Shown: piece after piece, positions 5,901-62,453 of the stretch
Numbering within the stretch: position 1 is the stretch's first letter
How the letters are laid out: the number at the start of each line of letters is the position of its first letter
Source: Eledone cirrhosa
Taxonomy: Eukaryota
Reading direction: 5' to 3'
Length of the DNA: 64,000 nt
Assembly: GCA_964016885.1 (NCBI GenBank)
Contig: OZ024740.1
Coordinates: 353,586,001-353,650,000, forward strand
Position numbers and translations under genes: made by a program
Notes under the pieces: generated by a model
Database searches by the model: none
Seen by the model: the letters and a program-made list of their open reading frames with translations, nothing else
Told to the model about the DNA's origin: nothing

Positions 5901-6385
5901 ACACCCCCTCTATCGGGACATGCCTCTACATAATCCCAACGTGCATCCAGGATACCATTCCAGTCCCCCACTAAAAGCAAGGAGCGAGACGTTCCCAGGA
6001 AATTCTCTAGGCGTCGGAAGAAGTCCGGTCGCGGTGTCCCAGATGGGGCATACGCTGCCACCAGCCTGAAAGCTCCACCTTCACCACTGCCGACGTCTAA
6101 AACCACCAGTTGACCCTCCGGGTCCAGGTGTACCTTCTGTGTGGCAAGACCCAGGTATTTTCGTAGCAGAACGACAACCCCACCCCCACCCCTCGGCTGA
6201 CAGAGAGATGCGTAGATCTCAAAGTCGCCGAAGATGGGGGCCAGTTGGCGCTCGCTGCTGATCCCGGACTCGCAAATAACCATTACATCCACTCTGTGCG
6301 ACCTGAGGTCATTTAAGAGTTTGCCCTGTTTCCAGGACATCCCCAAGCCGCGTGCATTCACACATCCAACACTTATATTGGCCAT
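2949..6385 (-). pseudogene. Tx1 ORF2 (APE endonuclease + reverse transcriptase), broken by stops and frameshifts
   Basis: Colinear ORF pieces 5882..6385, 5082..5822, 4194..4976 and 2949..4007 in the expected domain order. Confidence 0.9.
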
Positions 6386-7310: not shown

Positions 7311-7504
7311 TGGCACCAAGTCTACAGTTTTGAGATGAAAATTGAAAATTTCGCCCCAGAAAGGGGCGAAAATTATTTGACTCAACGTCTGACGGCACAG
7401 GCAAGGGGTTAAACTAAACAATGTTATTAAATTGAGCAATAAACTCAGTTTTTTTGACAATAATCCGTAAAAATCCGGAGCGAAGTAAATCACGTCTATA
7501 TCAA

Positions 7505-8000
7505 GTGGTAATTGATATAGAGAGGTGGATTGGAAGAGAGTTCCGTATAATAAATATAGAGAGGGGGAGAGTTTGGGGTTAACTTATATAGAGAGGGGTA
7601 TTGGAAGAGAGTTCCGTGAAGTAGATATAGAGAGGGGGAGAGTTTGGTGTTAATTGATATAAAGAGGGGGATTGGAAGACAGTACCGTGTAGTAAAACAG
7701 AGAGGAGAAGAGTTTGGTGGTTGTAGATATACAGAGAGGGACAATGGGAGAATGTCGTGTAGTAGATATAGAGAGAGTGAGAGTTTAGAGGTGATTAATA
7801 TACAGAGGGGCATTGGGAGATCTAAGTGTAGATATTTATTGAGACTGAGAAAATGTATTAGTCTTAGATATAGGGAGTGGGATAAGAGAGTCGGTGTCAT
7901 GGTAGATATAGAGAGGTATAGAGATATTGAGTTTGGTTTTAGCAGATACAGAGAGAGGTATTAAAAGAGAGTTTTGTGTGATGGACATAGAGAGGAAGAG
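7505..8000 (+). repeat. Right part of the GATATAGAGAG minisatellite
   Basis: Repeated GATATAGAGAGGGGGAGAGTTTGG / ATTGGAAGAGAGTTCCGT units that decay rightwards. Confidence 0.75.
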
Positions 8001-11540: not shown

Positions 11541-12014
11541 GCGGTGTTATCCACGCGGAGGCCGTTTAATCTACTGTAACAGCCAAATCTTGTTAAAATC
11601 GTAAGTTAAAGTTTAGAGGAGGTGGATGAGGGGGAGTAGGAGTAGTAGGAGGGAGGAGGAAACATTGACTAATGCAATCGTAGACACAAGATTGCTTAGA
11701 ACAAAATGGAGTAGTTACGGATGGAAATACTTTCATTATAGGTCAGCTTAATCAATGGTGAACTGTGGCCAAACTACACATAGAAATACATTGTATATGT
11801 GGGGCGTATGGCGTTGTGTGTGGTGTGTATGGCGTTGTGTATGTGTGTATGTGTGGTGTGTATGTGTGGTGTGTATGTGTTGTGTATGTGTTGTGTGTGT
11901 GTATGTGTTGTGAGTAGTGTATATGTGTTGTGTGCGTGGTGTGTATGTGTATGTGTGTGGTGTGTATGCGTATGCGTGGTGAGTATGTTGTATGCGTGTT
12001 GTGTATTAGTATGT

Positions 12015-27000: not shown

Positions 27001-29840
27001 TGTGTGGTGTGTAGTATGTGTACAATATGTGGTGTGTAGTATATGTAGAGAGTGTGGTGTGTAGTATGTGTAGAGTGTGTGATGTGTAGTATGTGTACAA
27101 TGTGTGGTGTGTAGTATATGTAGAGTGTGTGGTGTGTAGTATGTGTAGAGTGTGTGGTGTTTAGTATATGTAGAGTGTGTGGTGTGTAGTATGTGTAGAG
27201 TGTGTGGTGTGTAGTATGTGTAGAGTGTGTGATGTGTAGTATGTGTAGAGTGTCTGGTGTAATATGTGTAGAGTGTGTGGTGTGTAGTATGTGTGGCGTG
27301 TAGTATGTGTAGAGTGTGTGATCTGTAGTATATGTAGAGTGTGTGGTGTGTAGTATGTGTAGAGTGTGTGGTGTGTAGTATGTGTAGAGTATGCGATGTG
27401 TAGTATATGTAGAGTGTGTGGTGTGTAGTATGTGTAGAGTGTGTGGTGTGTAGTATGAGTAGAGTGTGTGGTGTGTATATGTGTACAATGTGTGGTGTGT
27501 AGTATGTGTAGAGTGTGTGATGTGTAGTATATGTAGAGTGTGTGGTGTGTAGTATGTGTAGAGTGTGTGGTGTGTAGTATGTGTAGAGTGTGTGATGTGT
27601 AGTATGTGTAGAGTGTGTCGTGTGTAGTATGTGTAGAGTGTGTGGTGTGGAATACATGTAGAGTGTGTGGTGTGTAGTATGTGTAGAGTGTGTGGTGTGT
27701 AGTATGTGTAGAGTGTGTGGTGTGTAGTATGTGTAGAGTGTGTGGTGTGTAGTATGTGTACAATATGTGGTGTGTAGTATATGTAGAGTGTGTGGTGTGT
27801 AGTATGTGTAGAGTGTGTGATGTGTAGTATGTGTAGAGAGTGTAGTGTGTAGTATATGTAGAGTGTGTGGTGTGTAGTATGTTTAGAGTGTGTGTGGTGT
27901 GTAGCATGTGTAGGGTGTGTGGTGTGTAGTATATGTAGAGTGTATGGTGTGTATTATGTGTAGAGTGTGTGGTGTGTAGTATGTGTAGAGTGTGTGATGT
28001 GTAGTATGTGTAGAGTGTCTGGTGTGTAGTATGTGTAGAATGTGTGGTGTTTAGTATATGTAGAGTGTGTGGTGTGTAGTATGTTTAGAGTGTGTGGTGT
28101 GTAGTATGTGTAGGGTGTGTGGTGTGTAGTATATGTAGAGTGTATGGTGTGTATTATGTGTAGAGTGTGTGATGTGTAGTATATGTAGAGTGTGATGTGT
28201 AGTATATGTAGAGTGTGTGGTGTGTAGTATATGTAGAGTGTGTGTTGTGTAGTATGTGTAGAGTGTGTGGTGTGTAGTATGTGTACAATGTGTGGTGTGT
28301 AGTATATGTAGAGTGTGTGGTGTGTAGTATGTGTAGAGTGTGTGATGTGTAGTATGTGTAGAGAGTGTAGTGTGTAGTATATGTAGAGTGTGTGGTGTGT
28401 AGTATGTGTAGACTGTGTGGTGTGTAGTATGTGTAGAGTGTGCGATGTGTAGTATATGTAGAGTGTGTGGTGTGTAGTATGTGTAGAGTGTGTGGTGTGT
28501 AGTATGTGTAGAGTGTGTGGTGTGTAGTATGTTTAGAGTGTGTGATGTGTAGTATATGTAGAGTGTGTGGTGTTTAGTATATGCAGAGTGTGTGGTGTGT
28601 AGTATGTGTAGAATGTGTGGTGTTTAGTATATGTAGAGTGTGTGGTGTGTAGTATGTTTAGAGTGTGTGTAGTATGTGTAGGGTGTGTGGTGTGTAGTAT
28701 ATGTAGAGTGTATGGTGTGTATTATGTGTAGAGTGTGTGATGTGTAGTATATGTAGAGTGTGTGATGTGTAGTATATGTAGAGTGTGTGGTGTGTAGTAT
28801 ATGTAGAGTGTGTGGTGTGTAGTATGTGTAGAGTGTGTGATGTGTAGTATGTGTAGAGAGTGTGGTGTGTAGTATGTGTACAATGTGTGGTGTATAGTAT
28901 ATGTAGAGTGTGTGGTGTGTAGTATGTGTAGATTATGCGATGTGTAGTATATGTAGAGTGTGTGGTGTGTAGTATGTGTAGAGTGTGTGGTGTGTAGTAT
29001 GTGTAGAGTGTGTGGTGTGTAGTATGTGTACAATGTGTGGTGTGTAATATATGTAGAGTGTGTGGTGTGTAGTATGTGTAGAGTGTGTGATGTGTAGTAT
29101 GTGTAGAGAGTGTGGTGTGTAGTATGTGTAGAGTGTGTGGTGTGTAGTATGTGTACAATGTGTGGTGTGTACTATATGTAGAGTGTGTGGTGTGTAGTAT
29201 GTGTAGAGTGTGTGGTGTGTAGTCTGTGTAGGGTGTGTGGTGTGTAGTATGTGTACAATGTGTGGTGTGTATTATATGTAGAGAGTGTGGTGTGTAGTAT
29301 GTGTAGAGTGTGTGGTGTGTAGTATGTGTACAATGTGTGGTGTGTAGTATATGTAGAGTGTGTGGTGTGTAGTATGTGTAGAGTGTGTGGTGTTTAGTAT
29401 ATGTAGAGTGTGTGGTGTGTAGTATGTGTAGAGTGTGTGGTGTGTAGTATGTGTACAATGTGTGGTGTGTATTATATGTAGAGTGTGTGGTGGTAGTATG
29501 TGTACAATGTGTGGTGTGTAGTATGTGTAGAGTGTGTGGTGTGTAGTATATGTAGAGTGTGTGGTGTGTAGTATGTGTAGAGTGTGTGGTGTGTAGTATG
29601 TGTACAATGTGTGGTGTGTAGTATATGTAGAGTGTGTGGTGTGTAGTATGTGTAGAGTGTGTGATGTTTAGTATATGTTGTGTGTGTGGTGTGTAGTATG
29701 TTTAGAGTGTGTGGTGTGTAGTATGTGTAGAGTGTGTGATGTGTAGTATGTGTAGAGTGTGTGGTGTGTAGTATGTGTAGAGTGTGTAATGTGTAGTATG
29801 TGTAGAGTGTGTGGTGTGTAGTATGTGTAGAGTGTGTGAT
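12015..29840 (+). repeat. ~17.8-kb satellite array, 25-bp unit GTAGTATGTGTAGAGTGTGTGGTGT, with higher-order structure
   Basis: The unit is read directly and gives a 25-aa periodicity in minus-strand translations. Matching ORF-track blocks are offset by exactly 3922 bp (22322 vs 26244) and 1928 bp (14511 vs 16439). Confidence 0.97.
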
Positions 29841-29919
29841 GTGCGTGGTGTGTATGTGTTTGTATGCTTGATGTGTATGTATTGTGTGTGGTGTATATGT
29901 TATGTATGTTGTGTGTATA

Positions 29920-30064
29920 TGTTGGGTGTGGTGTGTAACTGTATGTTGGGTGTGGTGTGTAACTGTATGTTGTGTGTGGTGTGTAACTGTATGTTGGGTG
30001 TGGTGTGTAACTGTATGTTGTGTGTGGTGTGTAACTGTATGTCGTGTGTGGTGTGTAACTGTAT
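29920..30064 (+). repeat. 24-bp minisatellite GTTG(G/T)GTGTGGTGTGTAACTGTAT, ~6 copies, in the degenerate GT-rich flank
   Basis: Direct tandem copies; the translation shows a repeated (MLGVVCNC). Confidence 0.9.
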
Positions 30065-43849: not shown

Positions 43850-45720
43850 CCGACAGTAGCTGAATTCAGTGGGATCCTCTGTGTCTGAGCAGCCCTGTTT
43901 AGGAGAACAATGCTCACTCCTTTTAAGGGGAAGAGACTAGAAGTGTCCTAAAAAAGGCCTGTCAATAGAAACTTGTCAGTACATCGCGACAGACGGTTTA
44001 AGTGGTGTAAAGAAGAAAAACAAGAAAATATATCAAAGTGGGTTGTTGAAATGTCCGTACATTACAAGACTCTGAGAATAGAACAGAGAGAAAGACAACT
44101 ACTGTGGAAACCAGGTTTCTTGTTGAAGGTCATTTGGACGAGTTGAAAGATTACATAATTTGTTAGTCTGGAAAACACGAGGAAAAAGTCGATAGTATGG
44201 ATTTGCTATGAAGAATGAGATATTCGACTCTCTTGGGGAGCTGCCTCGTATTGTAAATGAAAGGATCATGTTAATGAGGCTTCCACTCGTTGGAGGTCGT
44301 TATGCGTCTCTGGTGAGCGTTTACGCTCCGACGTTCAATGTTTCTGATAACGTTATGTCCAATGTTTATGAAACACTAATGGAAACTTTGTTAGTTATTC
44401 ATAGAGTTGTTTCTCATGGGAGATTTTAATGTACGTGTTGATAATGATTATCCGACATGGAGTGCTTTTGGTTCATTCGGTGTGGGATCAATATACTTAT
44501 ATTATGTACTGAACTCAGACTCAGACTCAGAAGCTCCCGCGTCTTGCGACGCATGAGGCAATCATAGTGTTCCACCGCGTTCGGTCAGCAGCCAGTTGCA
44601 CAGCGTCCCGCCATTGTCTGTTTGTCGCTCGCAGGTCCCTCTCAACTGTCTGGCGCCAGTTCATTTTGGGTCGCCCTCTCCGTCTGCTTCCCTGTGGGTT
44701 CCATTTAAGTACTTGGTTCGCCAGTCTCTCCGGGGTGAGTCTCAAAGCGTGCCCAAACCAGCCCAGGCGTCGCTTGCAGATGGCAGAAGAGACTAGCTGC
44801 TGGTCGGTGCGGTTCCTGACTTCCTGGTTTGTTACATGGTCACTCCATTTAATCCCCAGGATATTTCGCAGACACCTGGAATCGAATGCGTCCAACTTCT
44901 TCTCTTGGCTGGTCTTAAGGTGCCATGTTTCACTTCCGTACAAAAGTGTGGACAGCACGTTGCTGTTGTAGAATCTCATCTTTGTTTTGAGGGTGAACTT
45001 CCTGCTCTTCCAGATCTTGACAAGCTGGTTAAATGCTGCTGAAGTCTTTCCCATTCTACATTGCAATTCACTGTCCATGGCGCCCCCATTGTCAATGGAG
45101 CATCCTAGGTAGGTGAAGTTGTCCACTATCTCCACCTCCCCCCGTTCAATGAAAACACTAGTTGGTGATGGGTGTGTCCCAGATAACATGCTTTTGGTCT
45201 TCTTAGCACTGATATTGAGACCTAAGCTTCCTGCTTCGACACTGATATTGTTCATAATGATTTACAGGTCAGCTGTGCTCTCTGCAAGTGCAACAATATC
45301 GTCCGCAAAGTCCAGGTCAGACAACTTTTGCTCTCCCACCCAAGATATACCCTGGTCTTTAGACGCTCTTCTCAGTACCCAGTCAATGGCTATGGCAAAG
45401 AGAATTGGAGAGAGCGAGCAGCCCTGACGCACGCCAGTAACCACCTCAAACCAGTCACTGTAACCATCCTCTGTCCGTATGCAACACTTGGAGTTTGCAT
45501 AAATCTGTTTGATTGCCGAAATGACTTTCTGGGGCAGACCATACTCATGCATGATGCTCCAGAGTGACGGCCGATGAATGCTATCGAATGCTTTGGAGAA
45601 ATCGATGAAGCTGACGGCGAGGGGCCTCTGGAATTGTTGTACCTCTCAATGATGCGGCGTAACGTACTGAACTAGAACTTGCTATTATAAAATACATTTT
45701 CCGTAATAAGTTGATACATA
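43850..45720 (+). mobile_element. Old RTE-clade LINE 5' portion (5' UTR + APE), split by a younger insertion at 44516-45663
   Basis: Translates to NERIMLMRLPLVGGRYASLVSVYAPT and MGDFNVRV. Removing the insert rejoins LCTELELAII. Confidence 0.8.
44516..45663 (-). mobile_element. 5'-truncated RTE/RTE-X LINE (RT C-terminal half) with a 10-bp TSD and a (TCTGAG)n tail
   Basis: GVRQGCSLSP, LDFADD, FTYLG, LLYGSETW and GSRRRGRPK. TSD GTACTGAACT at 44506-44515 and 45664-45673. One frameshift near 45258. Confidence 0.92.
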
Positions 45721-46885: not shown

Positions 46886-47523
46886 TTAAACTTTGGCAGC
46901 TCCCTGATCATCTAATGGATAATAATTGTCTTTCATTTCTATACAATTTTCTTTCATTGAAATAGTTTTGTTTAGCTTGTACTGTCGCATAATTCTTGAC
47001 ACCTCTTCAAAAGGAGGTAGAAAAATAACTATGATAGCCATTACAATAACCCAAAGTTGCGTGAAACTTACCCAGATTTTAAACTGGGTTTCACTCATCA
47101 CCGAAAAGCTAGCCATAATACCCGGGATAATTACTGAAAAAAGAAAAATACAGGTAGTTCCACCAATATATGCTGTTAATTTGGCAGATCGGAAAGCTTG
47201 GTTCATTTGTTGAGATGTCGGTCTTTCGTCATATTCCATACCAGCAAGTTCTTCTCGGTAGTTTTGTTCCCAAGGATTCAAAGGATTATCAATGTTAAAC
47301 AACTTCTGCCATTCCTGCTCTTTGGCCTCTGCAGATACTATCTGGTGTGTCATTAATGATGTTACAACACAAAAGAACAAGCTGACGCCAAAACTGGTTA
47401 TTGTGCCAGCCAACAAAACATTGTCTTGGACTGTGTTAATCAAGAAATTTCCAAGACCTCCTGGATAAGTAGAAGCCACTCCTAACGTGACGATGATTCC
47501 ACATATTAACCCCAGAATGCATC
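46886..47523 (-). CDS. DUR3: DUR3-like Na+/solute symporter (urea transporter family), terminal coding exon
   Basis: Acceptor TTTTTTCTAATTCCAG at 47524 gives (G)GA TGC = GCILGLICGIIVTLGVASTYPGG; its phase matches the donor at 61995. Several TM helices, WQKLFNIDNPLNPW, stop TAA at 46886. Confidence 0.85.
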
Positions 47524-47744
47524 CTGGAATTAGAAAAAAAAAGAACTTAAATTAAAGCACAAAATTTAATGCATGTTATATGTAAAGTGGGTAACCGTAG
47601 ACAAAGTTTGTGAATATTATTTTTAAACAATGTAAAACTTAAGCACAGCATAGAGTGCTATTGTTATTTATATATTTTATCCACGTAACACACACATACA
47701 CACACACGTACGTATGTATGCATGTATGTACATTGTATATACAT

Positions 47745-48830
47745 ACATTTCAGAAATTTAACAGCTTGCGAGTACTTGTATCCATTTCGCTCAGCTTTTG
47801 CAATGACCAGTTCAGCAGGCCAAATGTTGGCGTTAGGATGAGCACAGCAAAAGTATTATGGGCAATGTGCTTGTTGTACGCTGAGAGTTCTGATGATCAT
47901 ATTCTCTTTACCCTCCTGAGGTATTCATTCCTGTTCTCTTCTAATTTATGGGTCCATCATATCTGATATTCCTATCCTGTCCACGATAATTGCCACCTGG
48001 TTATAGAAGTGTTATCGTCAAGCCGTTCATTTTTAGGTTTTCAGAGGAGGGCACAACTTTTCCACGTTTTATTGTAAAAAATACACACTTCTACTCACAA
48101 AATTTCATTCCAATGTCTGTATAAATTTAGGTTGGGTAATGAAGTCCAATTGTTTTTATGTGGTTGATATTTGGCAATACAATTTCAGGTCATCGACAAA
48201 GAAAAGATGGGAGATACTTCTGAATCCATTTCTATCGCCACTATATTTTGCTAGTAGGTATGATAGTGGGTTTAATGAAAGGACGAAGAGCAACACTGAC
48301 AAGCTACCAGCATGAAATATGCCTTTTCGATAGTAAATATTATCATACTAAATTTGCTTCTTATCCATAAGGAGCAAAGTGGTGTACCAAGTCTTGATCA
48401 GACGTTCAGTAGCTGCTACTAGTGGTTATAGGACTTTGGCTAACTGTACAGCCTTGATAATCCACCCATGTGGTATATTATTAAAAGCCTTCTGGTAGCC
48501 CAGTCACATTACAGGCAAGTTACTATTTTTTTTTCTTGCATCATTTTGTTAATTAGTAGCTGCTCTACAGCTCCAGACCTCCTCCTTCTCTCCAGCCAAC
48601 TCAGGTGTTATAATGTTGTTAGTGGCACAATAATTCATATGTGTTGCATGAACATGATTGGCAGTAGCCGAAAAAGGCTTAAAAAAAATTATTTAGTTAT
48701 TTTTATTTATTACCGCTGCATATGCATAGCAGAACTGAAAAAATTATGATCGTGTCACACATGTTTGAGGTAAGCGTCAAGTGATGGCAAATCTCGAAAT
48801 CGAAATGCAGTATGTACATGTGTATGTACC
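47745..48830 (-). mobile_element. Degenerate R4/Dong-like RT fragment flanked by (TATG)-type repeats
   Basis: Nucleotide similarity to 54310-55230, e.g. CAATGACCAGTTCAGCAGGCCAAATGTTGGCGTTA and TTCAGGTCATCGACAAAGAAAAGATGGGAGATACTTCTG, with deletions. Confidence 0.8.
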
Positions 48831-48880
48831 GAAATGTATGTATGTATGTATGTATGTATGTATGTATGTATGTATGTATG

Positions 48881-51800
48881 TTATCTCTTTCTCTTAATTT
48901 CGAGTATATTTTTTTGACCGGCCACCTTCCTGGTGGCAAGGTTGTAAAAGAAAAGAAATTGTCATCCCTTGAATCGCAAGAATGTTTTGCAAATTTTGAA
49001 GGTGCCGGCTATCGCAGCCATTTGTAGACTATGAATTAGGGAGCTGCGCTCTTTGTCCGCAAATCCAAGTTCAGTCATACTTTGGTCCAAACGGGTTGGT
49101 ATATAACCCGTAGCTCCAATAATGATGGGTATGAAGCTAAAGGTGTATCTTGGATACTGGATTTGCAAACTCCTCATCAATGGTCCGTAGATGTCCTCCT
49201 TCTCCTGTATTTTTCTGACAACGTTTACATCAAGTGGGCAGCTGATCTCCACAACAGAACACGTTTTCAATGTGTGGTCACAAACAACAATATCAGGCCG
49301 GTTGTGCTTTAATTTGGTGGCAGTTTTTATTTTCAGGTTCCACCAGTATTCCTTAGTGCCTCTGTCTCAATATATTCTTCCTAGTTTGTTGTTAATTTTG
49401 TTTTCCGAAGTGCATTCCAGATGGTTCTAGCTATCCCATCGTGTCTCATGGGAAGGTAGTAGCGAGATGACATTCTTTCGCAGCTGGCAACAATGTGGCT
49501 TACATCCTCGATCTTTGTTTTACATAGCCTACATTTATTGTCAGCTGCTGGCCCTCCCCTTTTGTGCAGCAGATATTTGGTAGGGAGTTCTTGTTCCTGT
49601 ATTGCATAGAGATATCCCTCAAGGTGTGATGTCATAAACTTGTCGGAACTCCATGCCAGGCTTTTTGAGTGGTTTATCCCCTCTATGGTCTGTGTTTTAC
49701 GTCTCAAGTATCCATGCACAACTTTTTCTGTAAATTGGTCAATTTTTTCATCTTGTTTGAACATTGAATAGGATCTTCCGATTTCTCTGGGTGAGAGATT
49801 TATATCAGGCTTTATTCCATATCTCTCCTCCAGATCAGTCGCTATTCTAATGATATCTTTTTTACATGCTCATAAACCTGGGCAAGATGGTTGCCAACCT
49901 TTTTCCTCTGTTGAAGGTGTTGCTTCAGTGTTACTATCCGGGTCTCATATGTTGTTAATATGGATTTTAGACCCCGTTAATATGGATTTTAGACCTTGCG
50001 TGAGAAGTATAGCCTATCCACATCACCATTGATGTTAAAGTTCCCAGTAACACTGAGAAGTTTGCGAGTTCTAACATCCATCTCACTTAGTTCTTGCAAT
50101 GACCAGTTCAGCAGGCCAAATGTTGGCGTTAGAATTGGCACAGCATAAGTATTGTGGGCAATGTATTTGTTGTACGCTGACAGTTCTGATGACCATATTT
50201 TCTTTACTCTTCTGAGGTATTCAGTTCTGGTTCTCTCCTTATTTATGGGTCCCTCATATCTGACATTCTCATCCTGTCCAAGATATCTGTAGTTGTCACC
50301 TGACTGTAGAGGTTGTATTGTCAGGCCGTTCATCTCTAGATTTCTAGAGGAGGACACAGCTCTTCCACGTTTTACTGCCAAATATGCACACTTGGACTCA
50401 CCAAATTTCATTTTGATGTCTGTTGAAAATTGTGTAATGAGGTCCAATTGTTTCTTGATGTCATTGATATTTGGCCCATACAACTTCAGGTCATCAACAA
50501 AGAAAAGATGGGAGATACTTCTGGACCCATTTCTTTGTCCACCTTGTTTCCTGAGTAGGTAAGATAGTGGATTTAGTGAGAGAACGAAGAGTAGCACTGA
50601 CAAGCTATCACCCTGAAAGATGCCCTTCTGGTAATGTATCTTATCAGTCTTAACTTGCTCCTTCTCACCTCTAAGGATCTAATTGGTGTACCAGTTCTTG
50701 GTCAGGCGTTCAACAGCAGCTACCAATAGTTGTGGGACTTTGGCTAACTGTAAAGCCTTAATAATCCACCCATGAGGTACACTATCAAATGCTTTTTGAT
50801 AGTCCAGCCACACCACAGTCATGTTTCTGCGATTCTTTGTTGGTTTTTCCTGAATCATTTTATTAGTTAGTAGGTGATCTATGCAACCCCGCACCTCCCT
50901 CTTTCCACCAGCTTGCTCAGGTGTTATGATGTTGTTGGTAGCACAGTGATCCTGTAAGAACAGGTTAAGGCACCCAGTATATAATTTATACATGATGTTT
51001 TGGCAGGCTATTGGGCGGTAATTTTTAGCAAGGGTGGTTTGGCTATTTTGGGGAATGAGGAGAGTAGTGGCAGTTGATAATCATCTGGGCAGTTCTTGTG
51101 TGCCTTTAATGGTTTCTGTAAACAGCCGTATGAGATCTTGCCGATAGAAAGTAAAATTCTTCAACCAGTATCCTGTAATGAGGTCTGGGCCTGGTGATTT
51201 CCTATTCGACATTTTCTGTAGAGCTGTTTCCAGTATTGACCCATCTATGTCATATTGTTTTGTCTGGACATGTTGGCAGTAGTCCTGTTCCAGTTCTTTT
51301 AGCCAATTAGTGTGTCTGTTGAATCCGTCATCCGTTTACCATACAGATCTCCAGTAGCTCTCAACCTGTTCTTTTGAAGGGGTGTCATTTACAGGGATTG
51401 TGCTTTTGCCACTGAAACTGATTTAGGATCTCTGGCAAACAATCTATTTAGCACTTGTCGTTTATGTGCTGTTGACTTATATTTTAGTCTTTCTGTTGTA
51501 GCTGTGAGTTGTTGTTTCAACTGGTGTAATTTGGAGTTCAAAGTTTTAAATTTTGTATCTCCAAATCGTCTCTCTAACTTTTTTTTAGGTCTTCCTGGTG
51601 TCGTGTGAAATTGCTCTCTATGTTGCATTTCATAACGACTGCAATGTGTGAGATACATCGTAACAGGGACAAAATTTTGCTTTTTAAATTTCGCATCCAC
51701 GCTGGTTAAGGCTTTTTGTTTATATCTTGATTGCGTGGTTTTAGATGTGTGTTATATGATAGCAATGTGACAGTTGAAACATATAACAAAATATTAAGCG

Positions 51801-53126
51801 TTTCAAATGTCGTTTCTACACCTTTAGATCGTATAGCCTTCAGATAATTGCCAGCTATTTCGTTCACAGCTTCCAATTCCAATTTAGTGGGTTCTTTACT
51901 GATTCTGGTGTTGTATGGTCTGTCACTCACATTAAGGCTGTGTATCTCTTGAAACATATCGTCCCATATCACTTGTAAGGTGTCCACAAGTTTTTGGTGT
52001 TCTGTTTGTACAGTAGAGTCATGAATTTCAGCCTCGTTGTTGATGCGGTGACAATTACTACTAGAGTTAGCTGACCTTTCTCGCTGTTCTTCAGTGGAAG
52101 TGGGATGGATTTCAGTAAAATAGTTGGTGAGCTGTTCACTGTTAGATTTAGCTGGCCCTTCTGTTTGTCTGTCAGTGGAGGTGGGGTGGTTGTCTACAAG
52201 GGCTGTATTTGTAGTATCACTCAATTCCGTTAGATGTATCCATTTACATATAATGATACGTTTTGTCTGGTCATTTAAATGCTTTGGAGAAAAGTCTAAT
52301 TCTGGGTGTTTGGAGTTCCATAAAGTTTTTAGCCTTTGCATAAAACCGAACTTTTGGGGTTCAGATTGTTTGTATGCTTCATATAATACTTTTTTAAGCT
52401 CGTAGCTCTATTGTATACAACGGTTGTAGTTGCGATTTGGTCGAAGGAGACTTGTACTTTTTGCCATGATGAGTTCGTCTATTCACTAATATTTCGTATT
52501 TATTTTTCAAAATAGTCGATGATCTTCTTTAAAAGTTTCGACAAAGTTCTGTGGGAATCAAATTTAAAGTTATTCACAGCTTGGGTAATATTCTTTTCAG
52601 TTAGTTTTTAATTCTACAACTGTGTTTTAAACGTTGTTCTTGAATCGTTTGAATCGAGAACAAAAAGAACCGTTACTTAGTATATTTCTTTATGAATGTA
52701 ATATAATATAACAACGCTGTATTTATATGTTAAAGTTTATGTATCATTCATATAAATAGGTGTTCTACAACTTATTCACAACATATTCACAGTTCAAACA
52801 CTTATGCTTTTGTTTCTGAATCGAAAACGTTACTTGTATATTTCTTTATAAATGTAATATAACAACGTTGCATTTATATGTTAAAGTATATATTTCGTTC
52901 ATATATTATAAGTGTATGTATCGTTCATATATCATAAGTGTATGTATCGTTCATATAAATAGGTGTTTTACAACACACTTACAGTTCAAACACTTATGTA
53001 GAATTATTGTATGTAATCTTACCGCGTAATGTAGCTCAACTTTTTCCAATATATGGTATGTTGCTTTCATGTAAGCCGTAATTACACACGTCCGATTATC
53101 GGACACTGACCACAACGGTCGCCATT
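48881..53126 (-). mobile_element. Full-length R4/Dong-clade retrotransposon, copy 1 (ORF disrupted)
   Basis: Colinear end to end with copy 2. The ORF is broken into track pieces (51706..52341, 50679..50993, 49989..50603, 49381..49764, 48962..49270). Flanked by (TATG)n. Confidence 0.93.
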
Positions 53127-53139
53127 GTATGTATGTATG

Positions 53140-56100
53140 TTTTCTCTTTCTCTTAATTTCGAGTATATTTTTTTGACCGGCCACCTTCCTGGTGGCAAGG
53201 TTGTAAAAGAAAAGAAATTGTCATCCCTTGAATCGCAATAATGTTTTGCATATTTTGAAGGTGCCAGCTATCGCAGCCATTTGTAGACTATGAATTAGGG
53301 AGCTGCGCTTTTTGTCCGCAAATCCAAGTTCGGTCATACTTTGGTCCAAGCGGGTTGGTATATAACCCGTAGCACCAATAATGATGGGTATGAAGCTAAA
53401 GGTGTATCTTGGATACTGGATTTGTAAGCTCCTCATCAATGGTCCGTAGATGTCCTCCTTCTCCTGTATTTTTCTGACAACGTTTACATCAAGTGGGCAG
53501 CTGATCTCCACAACAGAACACGTTTTCAATGTGTGGTCCCAAACTACAATATCAGGCCGGTTGTGCTTTAATTTGGTGGCAGTTTTTATTTTCAGGTTCC
53601 ACCAGTATTCCTTAGTGCCATCTGTCTCAATATATTCTTCCTCGTTTGTTGTTAATTTTGTTTTCCGAAGTGCGTTCCAGATAGTTCTAGCTATCCCATC
53701 GTGTCTCATGGGGAGGTAGTAGCGAGATGACATTCTTTCGCAGCTGGCAACAATGTGGCTTACATCCTCGATCTTTGTTTTACATAGCCTACATTTATTG
53801 TCAGCTGCTGGCCCTCCTCTTTTGTGCAGCAGATATTTGGTAGGGAGTTCTTGTTCCTGTATTGCATAGAGATATCCCTCAAGGTGTGATGTCATAAACC
53901 TGTCGGAACTCCATGCCAGGCTTTTTGAGTGGTTTATCCCCTCTATGGTCTGTGTTTTACGCCTCAAGTATCCATGCACAACTTTCTCTGTAAATTGGTC
54001 AATTTTTTTTTCTTGTTTGAACATTGAATAGGATCTTCCGATTTCTCTGGGTGAGAGATTTATATCAGGCTTTATTCCATATCTCTCCTCCAGATCAGTC
54101 GCTATTCTAATGATATTTCTTTTTTCATGCTCATAAACCTGAGCAAGATGGTCGCCAACCTTTTTCCTCTGTTGAAGGTGTTGCTTCAGTGTTACTATCC
54201 GGGTCTCATATGTTGTTAATATTGATTTTAGACCCCGGCCACCTTCCTTGCGTGAGAAGTATAGCCTATCCACATCACCATTGATGTTAAAGTTCCCAGT
54301 AACACTGAGAAGTTTACGAGTTCTAACATCCATCTCACTTAGTTCTTGCAATGACCAGTTCAGTAGGCCAAATGTTGGCGTTATAATTGGCACAGCATAG
54401 GTATTGTGGGCAATGTATTTGTTGTATGCTGACAGTTCTGATGACCATATTTTTTTTACTCTTCTGAGGTATTCAGTTCTGGTTCTCTCCTTATTTATGG
54501 GTCCATCATATCTGACATTCTCATCCTGTCCAAGATATCTGTAGTTGTCACCTGACTGCAGAGGTTGTATTGTCAGGCCGTTCATATCTAGATTTCTAGA
54601 GGAGGGCACAGCTCTTCCACGTTTTACTGCCAAATATGCACACTTGGACTCACCAAATTTCATTTTGATGTCGGTTGAAAATTGTGTAATGAGGTCCAAT
54701 TGTTTCTTGATGTCATTGATATTTGGCCCATACAACTTCAGGTCATCAACAAAGAAAAGATGGGAGATACTTCTGGGCCCACTTCTTTGTCCACCTTGTT
54801 TCCTGAGTAGGTAAGATAGTGGATTCAGTGAGAGAACGAAGAGTAGTACTGACAAGCTATCACCCTGAAAGATGCCCTTCTGGTAATGTATCCTATCAGT
54901 CTTAACCTGCTCCTTCTCACCTCTAAGGATCAAATTGGTGTACCAGTTCTTGGTCAGGCGTTCAACAGCAGCTACCAATGGTTGTGGGACTTTAGCTAAC
55001 TGTAAAGCCTTAATAATCCACCCATGAGGTACACTATCAAATGCTTTTTGATAGTCCAGCCACACGACAGTCATGTTTCTGCGATTCTTTGTTGTTTTTT
55101 CCTGAATCATTTTGTTAGTTAGTAGGTGATCTATGCAACCCCACACCTCCCTCTTTCCACCAGCTTGCTCAGGTGTTATGATGTTGTTGGTAGCACAGTG
55201 ATCCTGTAAGAACAGGTTAAGGCACCCAGTATATAATTTATACATGATGTTTTGGCAGGCAATTGGGCGGTAATTTTTAGCAAGGGTGGTTTGGCTATTT
55301 TTGGGAATGAGGAGAGTAGTGGCAGTTGATAACCATCTGGGCAGTTCTTGTGTGCCCTTAATGGTTTCTGTAAACAGCCGTATGAGATCTTGCCGATAGA
55401 AAGTGAAATTCTTCAACCAGTATCCTGTAATGAGGTCTGGGCCTGGCGATTTCCTATTCGACATTTTCTGTAGAGCTGTTTCCAGTATTGACCCATCTAT
55501 GTCATATTGTTTTGTCTGGACATGTTGGCAGTAGTCCTGTTCCAGTTGTTTTAGCCAATTAGCTTGTCTGTTGAATCCGTCATCCGTTTCCCATACAGAT
55601 CTCCAGTAGTTCTCAACCTGTTCTTTTGAAGGGGTGTCGTTTACAGGGATTGAGCTTTTGCCACCGAAGCTGCGATAAACTGATTTAGGATCTCTGGCAA
55701 ACAATCTATTTAGCACTTGTCGTTTATGGGCTGTTGACTTATATTTTAGTCTTTCTGTTGTAGCTGTGAGTTGTTGTTTCAACTGGTGTAATTTGGAGTT
55801 CAAAGTTTTAAATTTGGTATCTCCAAATCGTCTCTCTAACTTTTTCTTTAGGTCTTCCTGGTGTCGTGTGAAGTTTCTCTCTATGTTGCATTTCATAACG
55901 ACTGCGATGTGTGAGATACTTCGTCTCAGGGACAAAATTTTGGTTTTTAAATTTCGCATCCACGCTGGTTCAGGCTTTCTGTTTGTATCTTGATTGCGTG
56001 GTTTTAGATGTGTGTTATATGATAGCAATGTGACAGCTGAAACATATAACAAAACATTGAGCGTTTCAAATGTCGTTTCTACACCTTTAGATCGTATAGC

Positions 56101-57363
56101 CTTCAGATAATTGCCAGCTATTTCGTTCACCGCTTCCAATTCCAATTTAGTGGGTTCTTTACTGACTCTAGTGTTGTATGGTCTGTCACTCACATTAAGG
56201 CTGTGTATCTCTTGAAACATATCGTTCCATATCACTTGTAGGGTGCCCACAAGTTTTTGGTGCTCTGTTTGTTCAGTAGAGTCATGAATTGCAGCCTCGT
56301 TGTTGATGTGGTGACAATTACTACTAGAGTCAGCTGACCTTTCTCGTTGTTCTTCAGTGGAAGTGGGATGGATTTCAGCAAAATTGTTGGTGAGCTGTTC
56401 ACTGTTAGATTTAGCCGGCCATTCTCTTTGTCTGTCAGTGGAGGTGGGGTGGTTGTCTACAAGGGCTGTATTTGTAGTATCACTCGATTCCGTTAGATGT
56501 ATCAATTTACATCTAATGATACGTTTTGCCTGTTCATTTAGATGCTTTGGAGAAAAGTCTAATTCTGGGTGTTTGGAGTTCCATAAAGTTTTTAGCCTTT
56601 GCATAAAACCGAACTTTTGGGGTTCAGATTGTTTGTATGCTTCATATAATTCTTTGTTAAGCTCGTAGCTCCACTGTATACAACGGTTGTAATTGCGATT
56701 TGGTCGAAGGAGACTTGTACTTTTTGCCATGATGAGTTCGTCTATTCACTAATATTTTGTATTTATTTTTTTTAAATAGTCGATGATCTTCTTTAAAAGT
56801 TACGACAAAGTTCTGTCAGAATCAAATTTAAAGTTATTCACAGCTTGGGTAATATTTCTTTTCAGTTAGTTTTTAATTCTACAACTGTGTTTTAAACGTT
56901 GTTCTTGAATCGTTTGAATCGAGAACAAAAAGAACCGTTACTTAGTATATTCCTTTACGAATGTAATATAATATAACAATGCTGTATTTATATGTTAAAG
57001 TTTATGTATCATTCATATAAATAGGTGTTCTACAACATATTCACAACATTCACAGTTCAAACACTTATATTTTTGTTTCTGAATCGAAAACGTTACTTTT
57101 ATATTTCTTTATAAATGTAATATAACAACGTTGCATTTATATGTTAAAGTGTATGTATCGTTCATATATCATAAGTGTATGTATCGTTCATATAAATAGG
57201 TGTTTTACAACACACTTACAGTTCAAACACTTATGTAGAATTATTGTATGTAATCTTACCGCGTAATGTAGCTCAACTTTTTCCAATATATGGTATGTTG
57301 CCTTCATGTAAGCCGTAATTACACACGTCCAATTATCGGACACTGACCACAACGGTCGCCATT
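53140..57363 (-). mobile_element. Full-length R4/Dong-clade retrotransposon, copy 2 (intact ORF)
   Basis: ~630-bp 5' UTR, a single ORF, and an 81-bp 3' UTR with a GCCACC-AGGAA-GGTGGC hairpin. (TATG)n on both sides. Confidence 0.95.
53221..56730 (-). CDS. 1169-aa RT + CCHC knuckle + restriction-like (PD-D/E) endonuclease, R4/Dong type
   Basis: NYRPIAC, WLDYQKAFDSVPH, GIFQGDSLS, HLFFVDDLKLY, CRLCKTKIEDVSHIVASC, RHD and HNRPDIVV..VVEISCP. No APE domain and no stops. Confidence 0.95.
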   Translation of the reverse strand: MAKSTSLLRPNRNYNRCIQWSYELNKELYEAYKQSEPQKFGFMQRLKTLWNSKHPELDFSPKHLNEQAKRIIRCKLIHLTESSDTTNTALVDNHPTSTDRQREWPAKSNSEQLTNNFAEIHPTSTEEQRERSADSSSNCHHINNEAAIHDSTEQTEHQKLVGTLQVIWNDMFQEIHSLNVSDRPYNTRVSKEPTKLELEAVNEIAGNYLKAIRSKGVETTFETLNVLLYVSAVTLLSYNTHLKPRNQDTNRKPEPAWMRNLKTKILSLRRSISHIAVVMKCNIERNFTRHQEDLKKKLERRFGDTKFKTLNSKLHQLKQQLTATTERLKYKSTAHKRQVLNRLFARDPKSVYRSFGGKSSIPVNDTPSKEQVENYWRSVWETDDGFNRQANWLKQLEQDYCQHVQTKQYDIDGSILETALQKMSNRKSPGPDLITGYWLKNFTFYRQDLIRLFTETIKGTQELPRWLSTATTLLIPKNSQTTLAKNYRPIACQNIMYKLYTGCLNLFLQDHCATNNIITPEQAGGKREVWGCIDHLLTNKMIQEKTTKNRRNMTVVWLDYQKAFDSVPHGWIIKALQLAKVPQPLVAAVERLTKNWYTNLILRGEKEQVKTDRIHYQKGIFQGDSLSVLLFVLSLNPLSYLLRKQGGQRSGPRSISHLFFVDDLKLYGPNINDIKKQLDLITQFSTDIKMKFGESKCAYLAVKRGRAVPSSRNLDMNGLTIQPLQSGDNYRYLGQDENVRYDGPINKERTRTEYLRRVKKIWSSELSAYNKYIAHNTYAVPIITPTFGLLNWSLQELSEMDVRTRKLLSVTGNFNINGDVDRLYFSRKEGGRGLKSILTTYETRIVTLKQHLQQRKKVGDHLAQVYEHEKRNIIRIATDLEERYGIKPDINLSPREIGRSYSMFKQEKKIDQFTEKVVHGYLRRKTQTIEGINHSKSLAWSSDRFMTSHLEGYLYAIQEQELPTKYLLHKRGGPAADNKCRLCKTKIEDVSHIVASCERMSSRYYLPMRHDGIARTIWNALRKTKLTTNEEEYIETDGTKEYWWNLKIKTATKLKHNRPDIVVWDHTLKTCSVVEISCPLDVNVVRKIQEKEDIYGPLMRSLQIQYPRYTFSFIPIIIGATGYIPTRLDQSMTELGFADKKRSSLIHSLQMAAIAGTFKICKTLLRFKG

Positions 57364-57444
57364 GTATGTATGTATGTATGTATGTATGTATGTATGTATG
57401 TATGTATGTATGTATGTATGTATGTATGTATGTATGTATGTATG
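57364..57444. repeat. (GTAT)n microsatellite; further tracts at ~48835-48880, 53127-53139, 57851-57923 and 59488-59537
   Basis: Read directly from the sequence. Confidence 0.97.
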
Positions 57445-57850
57445 ACCGGGAGAGATGACCTCTTAGCCTTTGTCAAGGCAGAATTCTAGGAGAAGGAAAA
57501 CTCTGATATAACACCTGCAACCCTGATGGTATCCAATGATGTTGACTTGTTCTTCTTTTTGGTAAATATAATCTTGGTTAAGAGAGTGGGACTGGATTTG
57601 TGCAGTGCCTTTGCTCACTATAAAAGCTTCACGGAACAGGCATTGCTTTATATCTGGAGATCTCTCTGCACTTGTCGTCACATGGAACCATGGGCTCAGC
57701 ACTATATGTCAATAATTGTCACAAGTGTACTGTTTGTACCAGAGTTTTCAAGTCGCTGGCTGGACTAAAAAGTCACACTCGTTCAGCGCATTAGTAGGGG
57801 TTCTCCTATAAAGTAGTGGCCGTACTCGAAAACGAGTTGGCAGCCGCCAT
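57445..57850 (+). mobile_element. Short RTE-derived element (5'-UTR-like head, ORF C-terminal C2H2 finger, 3' stem-loop) with a (GTAT)n tail
   Basis: 57720-57794 encodes HKCTVCTRVFKSLAGLKSHTRSAH*, with WRSLC upstream in another frame. Hairpin ACTCG-AAAA-CGAGT lies before the tail. Confidence 0.7.
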
Positions 57851-57923
57851 GTATGTATGTATGTATGTATGTATGTATGTATGTATGTATGTATGTATGT
57901 ATGTATGTATGTATGTATGTATG

Positions 57924-59487
57924 TTCTTCTGGTTTTATAATTTCACAAAGTTTAACCAATAGAGAGAGAGTCGGTTTCTAAGATAGACACAAGACTCTCT
58001 CATTGGAATTTACACAACATCAACTACGTAGATATGTATGTATGCATGCATGTGTAGATATGGATGTTATTGTATGTGTGGATGTGTATGCTTTGAGTTG
58101 TATGTGTGCATGTGTATATGCTTTGTATCTGTACATGTGTATATGCAGTTATTAGATGCAAAATCTTTGGAATGTTTTACATATTTTTACTGTTCCATTA
58201 ATGGATTGTACTTGTAATTTCCTAACTAGTTGTGTTCTTTCTGTTCCTGTGAGGCCTAGCTTCTCAAGATTTGTATTGAGGCAGTTACTAACATATCCCA
58301 GTGCCCCAATAATCACAGGAATAAATCTGAAGGTGTAATCAGGGTGGAGTATCTGAATATTTCTCATCAGTTCTGCTTAAATATTCTCCTTTTCGCTAAT
58401 CTTTGATATTATATTGGCATCTGCTGGGCAGCTAATTTCCTCTACTGTGCATGTTTTCCTTTCCCTGTACCATATCATAATATCTGGTCTATTATGCCTG
58501 CATTTTATTGGGGCTTTTACTGGAACATTCCACCAGTACTCTTTCATATTATGCATATGGATGTCTTCCACATTGCTGTAGCTTTTAATGTGTTTATTAT
58601 CGGGGCTATCTTTTCTACGGATTGTATTGTACAGTGTTTTGGCCTCTACATTATGCCTCATAGGTAGATAGTACCTCGATGACATCTTTGTACAACTGCT
58701 GATGACATGGGTGATATCCTCGATGCTAGTTCTGCAGAGTCTGCACTTGTTATCACATCTAGGTGTTTTGCCTGCATCCCTATCTCTTTTGTGAAGCAGG
58801 TATTTCGTGCTAATCTCCTGTTCCTGGATTGCAAAAGCGTATCCTTCAAAGTGGGAGCCAATATAGCGGTTGTTGGTCCAAGATAGACTACTTTCCTTAT
58901 CTATATTACTCTTACTCTGGAGCTTCCTGGCAACATATCCATGCATGATTTTTTGCTGATAGGCATGCAGTTTTTCATCCATGGATTCACTGCGATACTG
59001 CTGAGTATTGTTTTGCTGTGAAATAATTTATCTCTGGGTGCATTTCGTCCCAGTGTAGCTTCATTCTATTCATATAGCCAATGGAGGGATTGTGTTTTGC
59101 CCTTTTATAACAATTAAATAAATCATTATTAAGTTCGCAACTCCAAGAGAAATGCGATTTATAATTTTGGTTTCTTCTGTAGCTACAACTGAATAAAGTT
59201 TGATTACCTTCCTTGTTATTTGTCTTCGGTACTTCCTTAATTTTTTTGTTGATGTTGTGTTCAGCCATGCTGTTTGTAGCAAATCCTTGTAAAATGAATT
59301 ATGTATTTAGTCGGATATCTCTACGAATTCGAATAAAAGGTGTCTTCAGAAGGGATAGTTAGAAGAATAACCAGTTATTCAACCTGACTGTAGTTGTGGC
59401 ATTACTGTCGGAGATAGTATTCATCTTAAATTTAATAAATAGTCTCCCACGCCAAAATATGCGACTGATCGCGTTGACTGATGGAAT
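57924..59487 (-). mobile_element. Internally deleted R4/Dong element of a distinct subfamily (both ends kept, RT removed)
   Basis: N-terminal piece 58987..59268 (RNQNYKSHFSWSCELNNDL..GYMNRMKLHWDEMHPE) abuts C-terminal pieces 58377..58982 and 58152..58367 (CRLCRTSIEDITHVISSC, HNRPDIMI). (TATG)n on both sides. Confidence 0.88.
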
Positions 59488-60685
59488 GTATGTATGTATG
59501 TATGTATGTACGTATGTATGTATGTATGTACGTATGTTTTAAAACTTTTATGATGTATGTGTATGTATAGCAAATTGTTTGCTAAAGTTTTTGACAATGG
59601 GAATAAATAGTAACTATAGTATCTCTAATGACAATACTTAATTGTTTGAATATAAAATGGTGATTTCTTGATAGAAGCCAGACTTCTGTCAGAAAAAAGT
59701 TTTTTCTTTTTATAAATTTTTCTTTTTAGACGAAACGAAAAAAACCGTAAAGATAACGGATGCAGAATTCTAAAGAATCGAATTTCTTGAGAAATTCAAT
59801 TCAAACTCCACTTGATTCTATGTTGTTGTTTTTTTCAAATATAAAACATCTTGGTACGGCGGTAATCGGCATTTAATACTTCAATTATTATTTTTAGTTT
59901 TTCGAAATTCTACCTCTTCAGAAAATAATGTCTAACTTAAGTCATCTTAAACATTCAAATATCTTTAATGTTTCATTTGTGAAAGAAAAACACGGACGGA
60001 CAACATTTTGATACAATATACAGTATAACGATGGCATGGATCTCCACCAGTTTCGATGATGAACTCTCCTGTTGTTTCATCAATGGAACAGCCTCTGCCC
60101 ATGTAATTAACGTGTAAATAGCTGAGCTTTCTACAGACTCGTTGACCTTTAACGTGAGTCTTAGGAAGATCCAGTGTGTCACAGGTTTGTAGCACGGATA
60201 AAACAAGAAACCACGTATTGAATCTAGCTCACAAAATTATAGACGCGACAGCAGAGACAACGGAGTAAGGAGAATTGGGAGTAAAGTATTTTTTTGTGTG
60301 GATAAGGTGTGAGCAGATGCAGCCGAGTTGGAAGTGTGAGTCATTAAGTTCTAGAAGATGGAGTTGGAGAGATTGTGAAGAGGATGGCTAATAGATACGG
60401 AGATATGAAGAAATTGGACGAAAGAATTAGAAAACAGGGAGGCGAATTCAAGAGCAAGGTAAAAAGAGAAAGATATACAAGATATACATATGTCTCGATG
60501 ATGTAAATACACACAATTTTTCGTCAGGCAAGAGACACACATATATGTGCCACCCTACGAGAAAATGTGTTGATAAATGAGATTTGAGTGCGATGCTGGA
60601 GACGGTGGGGCAGGAGTTGTAAATCTGTGAGGCATACATCCACAGTTACCTCCCCTCTATTGTGTTGGTCGACTCAAAGAAATTT

Positions 60686-61355
60686 TCGTATATACTTGAA
60701 TATAAGTCGACTCGAATATAAGTCGACTCAAATATAAGTCGACCCTATTTTATGTCTGAGAAATTGTTAAAAATCCAAACCCCATATATAAGTCAAAACA
60801 GCTAATCAACACATTATGTTTACGTGTTACGGTTTCGAAATTCTCATAAGTGGAGAATATATTTATGAAGTTTTAATATTTTGATATTTAAAATGTTTTA
60901 AGTGTCGTTTAGAGTATAGGCTTTGTTTCTCAACTCCATTACGAATGATTTTTTTACCTGTTTCCGACCGTTTTGAAGGTCATATTCATTTAAAACACAT
61001 TTAAAAAAATAGAAAAAAGAAATTTCGCTTCCAAAGTAAAACATTGTAATATCCTCCGCCAAAGTGAAACTGGTGTAATATTTTCCTCCAAAGTGAAACC
61101 GGTGTAATATTCACCTCCAAAGTGAAACAGGTGTAATATTCTCCGCCAAAGTGAAACAGGTGTAATATTCTCCTCCAAAGTGAAACCGGTGTAATATTCC
61201 CCCCCCCCCAAAGCGAAAATATTTTAGCACCTCATTTACGGAGAATTTGAAGTTGGTGAAAATCGGCAAAATATTGAACTCGAATATAAGCAGACTCTAT
61301 TCTACCATCGAATTTTTTGTCACATATTTCTCCAGCTTATATATGAGTATATACC
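60686..61355. mobile_element. Tc1/mariner (Tc2/pogo-like) MITE relic carrying an internal 29-bp minisatellite
   Basis: Imperfect TIRs CGTATATACTTGAATATAAGTCG / CTTATATATGAGTATATACC and subterminal CTCGAATATAAGTCGA repeats. Confidence 0.55.
61031..61215 (+). repeat. 29-bp minisatellite CCAAAGTGAAACCGGTGTAATATTCTCCT, ~6 copies
   Basis: CCAAAG recurs at 61059, 61088, 61117, 61146 and 61175. Confidence 0.9.
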
Positions 61356-61437
61356 TTGCGTCTTCATTCAGAAAGCGTTGATGTTTACCTATATGTGTTT
61401 TTTCGTGTATAATTATAATCATATATAATTATAATCA

Positions 61438-61793
61438 TTGCCTTTCATCCTTATGGGGTCGATAAAATAAAGTACCAGTAATGCACTGGGTAATTGCTGG
61501 CCTTGTGCCTAAAGTAGAAACAATTATAATCATACATAAATTATCTCTATAACATTTCTTCTTCTTCTTCTTCTTATTTTATTATTATTATTAGGCAGTA
61601 ATCGGTAGAGAGTCGGACGCCAGGCTTTCCAGCATAGAGTTACCTCCCTTTATGATCTGAGTTTAAATCCCGCCGAGGTTAACTTTACCTTTCATCCTTA
61701 CGGGGTCGATAAAATAAAGTACCAGTAATGCACTGTGTAATTTATGGCCTTGTGCCAAAAGTAGAAACAATTATTATTATTATTATTATTATT
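61438..61793 (+). mobile_element. Two tandem SINE copies (truncated 61438-61530; near full 61594-61793 with an (ATT)n tail)
   Basis: Same core as 30911-31101. Confidence 0.85.
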
Positions 61794-61995
61794 TGTGACA
61801 CCAGAAATGGTGGCCTTGCATTATTTAGTTTCGTACTTCTAAATCAATATATATTTGACACACTCAGTCTTTCGTCACACGTCACACATGAACTACTTGA
61901 GTCCATCCAATCAACCATCCATATCTCTTTATGTAAGAACTCATCATTATCAATCCCATCACCACTGTTATTGTTATAATTATGGTTATACATAC

Positions 61996-62453
61996 CAGTT
62001 ATGAGGCCTTTTCCAGTAGCTTTCACCCACAGGATTGACAAAAGTACTGGTGGAAAACACGGAATTGTAAGAATAGCGCCAACATAAAATATCCAGTTTA
62101 AGTTGATACCAGACATAAACACCATCAGCCCAAGAGGTATTATGCTTATTGTTACCCATACTATACACCAATTTTTGAAGGCTATCAAATCATCTTGATA
62201 TTCACGATAAGAGCCATGAGTAGGGCATTCGTAACGGAATCGAGTTGGTTCCTTCTTACTCCGTGCATTACGTGCTTCTAGATCATCTTTACAGCGAGGA
62301 CAGGCTGAAACTGTTAAGCATTTGCAAGTCAAGTGGTCACTTAACACTGTTGTGCCACTTCCGCTTACGTTTTGGTCACACAGATCACCGTTTGTTTCCA
62401 TTTTTACTTTGGTCTTCCCACACAAAACACATTGATTCCTCTTGAGGTTTCGC
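61996..62453 (-). CDS. DUR3: DUR3-like transporter internal exon (458 nt) including the Cys-rich loop
   Basis: Acceptor TTTTTTCGCAG at 62454, donor G|GTATGT at 61995. Encodes RNLKRNQCVLCGK...GINLNWIFYVGAILTIPCFPPVLLSILWVKATGKGLIT, which resembles the DUR3 'l.Wly...P..l.l.W.K' region. Phases 2 and 1 fit the neighbouring exons. Confidence 0.88.

Follow-up and report, generated by a model that had tools for sequence, protein, structure and literature searches.

In a 64,000-bp stretch of the Eledone cirrhosa genome (contig OZ024740.1, positions 353,586,001 to 353,650,000 of the forward strand; hereafter the window, whose coordinates are used throughout), one intron of a sodium/solute symporter gene is largely occupied by an array of retrotransposon copies, including four that we term E1 to E4. 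We are confident that E2, E3 and E4 represent two families, each encoding a reverse transcriptase (RT) together with a restriction-like endonuclease (RLE), whose copies across the genome occupy (CATA)n tracts with an invariant orientation; the likely cause is that the endonuclease cuts the repeat and reverse transcription is primed there. The target specificity is well supported, and the junction tally under a strict scoring rule bears out the original prediction, made from the sequence alone, of a (CATA)n-specific RLE lineage.

Junctions were taken from searches of the 3.0-Gb genome, in each of which the best 40 of 559, 756, 1420 or 181 first-look candidates were scored and 30 loci were returned. 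The E3 3' and E4 5' sets exclude the window's own copy, which did not occur among the E3 5' loci. A flank was assigned to (CATA)n when at least 16 of its 20 bases matched this repeat, provided that the match beat TATG and at least equalled TA. By this rule, 68 of the 77 5' junctions fall within (CATA)n as read on the sense strand of the element, against 0/77 on the opposite (TATG) strand; the 77 comprise full-length 5' ends of E3 (26/30) and E4 (25/29) and 5'-truncated ends of E3 (17/18). The 3' ends gave 26/29 for E3 and 23/30 for E4, and the 5' alignment breaks of E4 gave 11/20. Over all 156 junctions, none was found on the TATG strand and two in (TA)n, while local background DNA was CATA-like at 0.57% (60 kb) and 0.24% (82 kb) and TA-like at 6.5% and 6.1%. 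The 5' junctions indicate that the repeat is a target and not merely a tail. The truncation breakpoints of E3 vary in position and still adjoin a tract, which a 3' tail alone does not explain, and 3' tracts as short as 4-8 nt (L059, L057) argue against a long obligatory tail. The flank tally thus contradicts a repeat present only as a 3' tail, and the orientation tally contradicts random orientation relative to the repeat strand. The same five terminal bases occur in 29 of the 30 E3 5' flanks, and 3' flanks start with CATA in 28/29 (E3) and 25/30 (E4) cases. Since the 5' phase is constant within E3 and different in E4, the cut position is not readable from the junctions; the RNA tail may account for the 3' phase.

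Several points weigh against this reading. Sampling the best candidates favours young copies, the window's own copy remains in the E4 3' and E4 5'-break sets, and two of the 30 E3 5' matches (L026 and L027) are the same place. Nine of the 20 E4 5' breaks fall outside a tract, several of them apparently being internal deletions or alignment ends, and no empty allele was seen. It is also conceivable, if improbable, that insertion needs only a very short CATA seed, or follows a loose AT-rich preference, with the long tracts at both ends built by the elements through reiterative synthesis, so that the repeat would be more a product of insertion. The long median tracts (112 and 69 nt at the 5' ends, 55 and 50 at the 3' ends) and the fixed 3' phase, as expected of a templated tail, are consistent with such synthesis. 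However, 17 of 18 randomly truncated 5' ends adjoin CATA, interrupted, aged tracts make up many of the flanks, some 3' tracts measure only 4-8 nt, and an unrelated element, described below, sits in the same tracts via both of its ends.

The array spans 47745-59485, i.e., 11.7 kb or 81% of an intron of 14,472 bp, in agreement with the ~12 kb of a 14.5-kb intron estimated originally; DNA resembling the R4 clade totals ~10.9 kb of the 14.47-kb intron. Of the four RLE-type elements predicted, tblastn recovered four RT/RLE-related minus-strand segments near the expected places, but E1 is a fragment only. E3 (53140-57362, minus strand) is a full-length young copy with an intact 1174-amino-acid (aa) frame at 53221-56745 carrying RT, CCHC and RLE. 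E2 (48882-53125, minus strand) is a full-length older copy of the same family, frameshifted by 1- and 10-bp indels and 3.2% apart from E3 (96.4% identity in the comparison of fetched loci, among which its best match reaches 97.0%). The 5' untranslated regions (UTRs) of E3 and E2 consist of diverged internal repeats holding short CATA words (56933-57235 and 52668-52998, respectively). E4 (57925-59485, minus strand) belongs to a second family, with 51% aa identity to E3 over RT-RLE, so that the predicted presence of at least two diverged subfamilies holds; it has kept both ends, namely the 5' 478 bp and the 3' 1081 bp of a 4105-bp family, and lost ~2.55 kb internally. E1 (47745 to ~48630, minus strand) corresponds to aa 515-814 of E3 and lacks a 5' end, an RLE and a 3' end. 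Its 77-78% nucleotide identity to E2/E3 indicates an older relative of these two. We found no close family of E1; its best other matches (87-88% over 196 bp) are older members of the E2/E3 family. The segment at 48630-48828, originally taken as the 5' end of E1, is by sequence comparison a plus-strand feature, the 3' end of an old repeat that likely derives from an RTE. It shows 65-79% identity to 16 other loci, 10 of which also match the RTE-like element described next, with a separate young copy in three of them.

This fifth element of the array (57445-57848, plus strand) is a young copy, truncated at its 5' end, of a related non-autonomous element of 607 bp that carries a C2H2 remnant and likely derives from an RTE. 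All R4-like segments do lie on the minus strand, as predicted, but the claim that the whole array is co-oriented fails at this element. The tracts are (ATGT)12 at 48834-48881, (TGTA)20 at 57363-57444, (ATGT)19 at 57849-57924 and (ATGT)13 at 59486-59537; a further tract of 14 bp (53126-53139) separates the 3' end of E3 from the 5' end of E2. Tract boundaries were thus confirmed for E2, E3 and E4 but not for E1, i.e., for three elements instead of the four claimed. The co-orientation with the host gene carries no signal of its own: it is dictated by the strand of the tract and therefore amounts to a single event (n = 1).

Growth of the array by unequal crossing-over or gene conversion between tracts, without separate insertions, is barely credible: tract-anchored partial tandem duplications do exist (L026/L027, L046), but E3 is 99.1-99.9% identical to dispersed young copies and only 96.4% to the neighbouring E2, which implies that E3 inserted separately, E4 comes from a different family, and 5'-truncated copies with intact 3' ends are a signature of retrotransposition. 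Separate insertion into (CATA)n is the reading that we retain, and its mechanism is suggested by analogy to R2 and Dong. The element protein would bind its own RNA, nick the TATG strand and prime cDNA synthesis there, perhaps with help from CATA units that terminate the RNA at its 3' side. Annealing to upstream CATA would then join the 5' end, in which case truncated copies should adjoin the tract as well. A tract remains on both sides of each copy, and further copies land in such tracts. Judging from divergence, E1 and the old RTE-like piece would have arrived in the intron first, followed by E4 and E2, each ~3-4% from its own family, and last by E3, into the tract just upstream of E2. From the opposite strand, the RTE-like element uses such CATA tracts as well as (TA)n.

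The E3 family is very young and has intact frames. The 30 E3 5' matches show no difference over 120 bp, and along the aligned lengths, mostly 1.6 kb, their identity to E3 is 98.2-100%; the 1174-aa frame is intact in two of four further full-length copies. Repeated landing in one tract, as originally proposed, was substantiated: across the tract from 116 junctions, another R4-like copy was found in ~22 cases, always co-oriented (two are partial 5' duplications), and the RTE-like element in 31, always antiparallel. CATA tracts are therefore landing pads shared by R4-like and RTE-like elements on opposite strands. Self-renewing growth of the tract and growth of the intron, also proposed originally, found no such support, as no empty allele was seen. 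We rejected the idea that RTE tails make the target, because the RTE-like element adjoins R4 tracts via its 5' end (19) besides its 3' end (12). Sampled alone, 29 of its 5' ends lie in TATG (12), TA (9) or neither (8), and these 21/29 ends in TATG or TA point to targeting and not to tail-making only. The 607-bp element has a microsatellite 3' end, and its autonomous partner was not retrieved in our searches. Its RTE label rests on the C2H2 remnant, this microsatellite end and what we take to be an RTE 5'-UTR motif.

The E3 protein is that of an RLE-type non-long terminal repeat retrotransposon, having in one open reading frame (ORF) an RT, a CCHC and a PD..D/E..K endonuclease, and no apurinic/apyrimidinic endonuclease (APE). 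Pfam RVT_1 matches aa 480-731; the RT residues are D667 and D668, the CCHC is formed by C985, C988, H997 and C1002, an RH pair follows at R1014 and H1015, and the RLE residues are P1064, D1065, E1080 and K1096. The RT, CCHC, RH and PD..E/D..K residues are kept in 42-43 of 43 aligned relatives. A structure model of E3 (predicted local distance difference test score, pLDDT, of 85) has its best fold matches in structures of R2 target-primed reverse transcription. The R4 clade is characterized by the absence of N-terminal zinc fingers. In the first 400 aa of E3, neither a C/H finger pattern nor a Pfam finger was found, and PMC7998251 likewise describes the R4 clade as being without N-terminal zinc fingers. 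A diverged N-terminal Myb/SANT-like domain is a further trait of the clade; the model predicts three confident helices at aa 27-79, and this region is 30% identical to a Bombyx protein of Dong type; a Myb fold search with the N-terminal model at pLDDT 62 gave no clear match. E3 scores 454 bits against the Bombyx protein and 104 against R2, from different programs, and its nearest named relative is from Argonauta hians. The protein searches returned no sequence named R4, Dong or Rex6, and we therefore file E3 as R4-clade-like and not as Dong.

A search with the C-terminus of the Bombyx protein uncovered two further, Dong-like RLE families of this genome, with ends in (TAA)n (L301-L336). One of them has intact 1216-aa frames, and the RLE region gave 42,480 first-look candidates. 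In quick trees with distant outgroups, evaluated by Shimodaira-Hasegawa-like approximate likelihood ratio (SH-aLRT) support, the two TAA families cluster with Penaeus, Pediculus and Bombyx proteins (support 93); a separate branch unites E3 and E4 with the Argonauta protein and with many unnamed proteins at 41-59% identity. E3 appears as sister to the TAA Dong-like group in these trees, which hold no R2, NeSL or HERO rows, and it is equally distant, at 33% identity, from the Bombyx protein and from the TAA family of its own genome. The CATA families are thus separated in the trees from the Dong-like families of this genome that target TAA. Membership in the Dong group, as originally assigned, is not upheld: the junctions are (CATA)n and not (TAA)n, and the Dong-like TAA families of the same genome are on the other branch. 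Among metagenome relatives on the E3/E4 branch, one has (CTTA)n at both ends (L222) and one has (CTTA)n at its 3' end (L224); a scan of GTDB genomes gave no relative. The placement has its own counterevidence. The CATA/CTTA branch received support of 100 in one quick tree and 91 in the other, and L221, of the same branch, has no repeat tract within its contig (flank scoring excludes L223 and L225). No Rfam ribozyme matched the 5' end, nor did our own hepatitis delta virus (HDV)-like descriptor, which had no positive control. Rfam microRNA matches were discarded as microsatellite artefacts.

The host gene lies on the minus strand and encodes a DUR3-like sodium/solute symporter, with TIGR00813 matched collinearly by four exons and one exon matching DUR3 structures (E 7e-14). 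Its last coding exon (46886-47523, minus strand) was delimited by an ORF and an acceptor AG, and the 14,472-bp intron (47524-61995, minus strand) by GT/AG ends and phase continuity, from sequence only. A 29-bp minisatellite in six copies (61030-61199) also lies within this intron. At ~62240-62350, a host exon includes a cysteine-rich stretch with a weak zinc-ribbon match (PF23545, E 8e-5), below the cut-off. Another intron of the gene, of ~10 kb, contains further RT-like frames, and directly downstream of the gene there is an RT fragment with DUF6451 (44527-45645). Elsewhere in the window, we noted a GIY-YIG frame (Penelope-like; 628-1575), a broken RT/zf-RVT element (2949-7583) and an 18-kb satellite (11863-30057) of ~730 copies of a 25-bp unit with higher-order repeats.

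Part of the array, together with the last host exon, also exists as a very recent second copy 191 Mb away on the same contig (C1). The 2,070-bp segment 46808-48877 (minus strand) recurs at G000:C1:162540293-162542362 (L122, L141, L159) with 99.9% identity, the two differences both being within the tract. The copy comprises the tract, the old RTE-like end, E1, the end of the intron, the last exon and 78 bp beyond the stop; CATA/TA tracts and a full-length RTE-like element adjoin it. The last host exon was present at only these two places in the genome search. Short-read contigs of runs X2 and X3 begin exactly at the junction at 46808, and those of X1 and X4 read through; the depth of X2 climbs from 7.7 to 12.4 at the junction, which suggests that the copy may occupy a single haplotype. 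In run X5 (organism B), the exon is covered at ~2% divergence.

All three origins that we consider for this copy fit, and we lean slightly to transduction by the R4-like machinery over RTE copying and templated repair. Such an orphan 3' transduction, made from sense read-through or host pre-mRNA and truncated in the tract, is a tentative proposal. On the sense strand CATA occurs on both flanks, the 3' junction starts with CATA like the element junctions, and the source is directly downstream of an intact young element; however, the copied 3' end has neither an element 3' UTR nor poly(A) and shows only 2 nt of microhomology, the exon copy contains no A-to-G differences, and ~190 loci gave no clear shared unique flanks indicating frequent transduction. 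It is possible, if somewhat unlikely, that RTE machinery copied an antisense RNA terminated by the old RTE-like 3' end and an (ATGT)n stretch, with truncation at 46808: on the plus strand the copy has just this end, it starts with 2-nt microhomology as a 5' truncation does, and it is in tandem with a full-length RTE-like copy. This route requires antisense transcription, and a divergence of 21-35% separates the old RTE-like 3' end from its relatives. DNA repair, in which a broken CATA tract was mended with 2 kb copied from this locus and rejoined by microhomology without an RNA intermediate, appears comparably possible and unlikely. The copy is unspliced, tailless and free of differences outside the tract, with homology at one end and microhomology at the other, but a single test found no second copy of the unique intron DNA that lies past the array on its other side. 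An artefact is very unlikely, as the X2 and X3 contigs break at the junction, which argues against mis-assembly, though X1-X3 are one sample, possibly the assembled one, and thus not independent evidence. We rejected the inverted pair around the exon copy as arms of a miniature inverted-repeat transposable element, since a partner within 1.5 kb was lacking in all 15 other copies. The arms are separate (TA)n-associated repeats, so that no clean pre-insertion site can be reconstructed. One young repeat here (L141:3072-3145; L337-L351) adjoins (TA)n with its end in most of the 15 copies examined (817 candidates) and is likely another TA-targeting element. A wider view, in which an undescribed, widespread sister lineage of Dong reads tetranucleotide C-W-T-A repeats (CATA in this genome, CTTA in others), is active to this day, shares pads with RTE-like elements of the opposite strand and can take host exons to new tracts by 3' transduction, is doubtful as a whole, and we found no report of 3' transduction for RLE elements.

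The literature that we searched contained no CATA- or CTTA-targeting R4/Dong element; Repbase, Dfam, subscription papers and bioRxiv supplements were beyond its scope, and a prior description is possible. The families described here provide natural TAA-, CATA- and CTTA-specific versions of one enzyme family, and this genome holds two of them in intact form. How RLE retrotransposons switch targets thereby becomes directly testable by domain comparison and cleavage assays. They also suggest that microsatellite tracts organise the piling of big insertions, introns included, and the exon copy shows that CATA tracts receive host sequence too. In O. vulgaris, Dong-R4 comprises 51 families and 92.7 Mb, and five families in Octopus have 1129 recent insertions (PMC13282606); a Dong with a full ORF is present in O. 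bimaculoides (PMC9115989). Dong-R4 is thus abundant and active in Octopus, as the E3 family is recently active here, and the accessible text of the reports gives no target (PMC13282606, PMC9115989, PMC10294476). The Octopus 'Dong-R4' label likely lumps TAA and CATA families, which suggests that the large 'Dong-R4' fraction of octopod-type genomes consists of several lineages with different targets.

Other microsatellite-associated elements offer partial parallels. Waldo elements of the R1 clade target ACAY (PMC3812793), which includes ACAT, that is, the CATA repeat, but Waldo uses an APE, and the common target is therefore convergent. Togen (NeSL-related, (TG)n) and some HERO families are microsatellite-specific RLE elements (PMC4640811), but they belong to other clades and recognize other repeats than E3 and E4. 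The 607-bp element resembles RTE-2_OV (PMC9115989) and lepidopteran RTEs (PMC2887409) in its C2H2 remnant and microsatellite 3' end, but differs in having TATG or TA also at 21 of 29 5' ends. The closest parallel is Dong itself. Dong of Bombyx mori, DongAg, DongBg and the ostracod Dong share with E3 and E4 a single ORF with RT and RLE, a microsatellite target and tandem piling. Dong has a 5' HDV-like ribozyme (PMC3774820), of which we found no counterpart here, and the published Dong target in insects, molluscs and cnidarians is (TAA)n (PMC3812793, PMC7998251), whereas E3 and E4 target (CATA)n.

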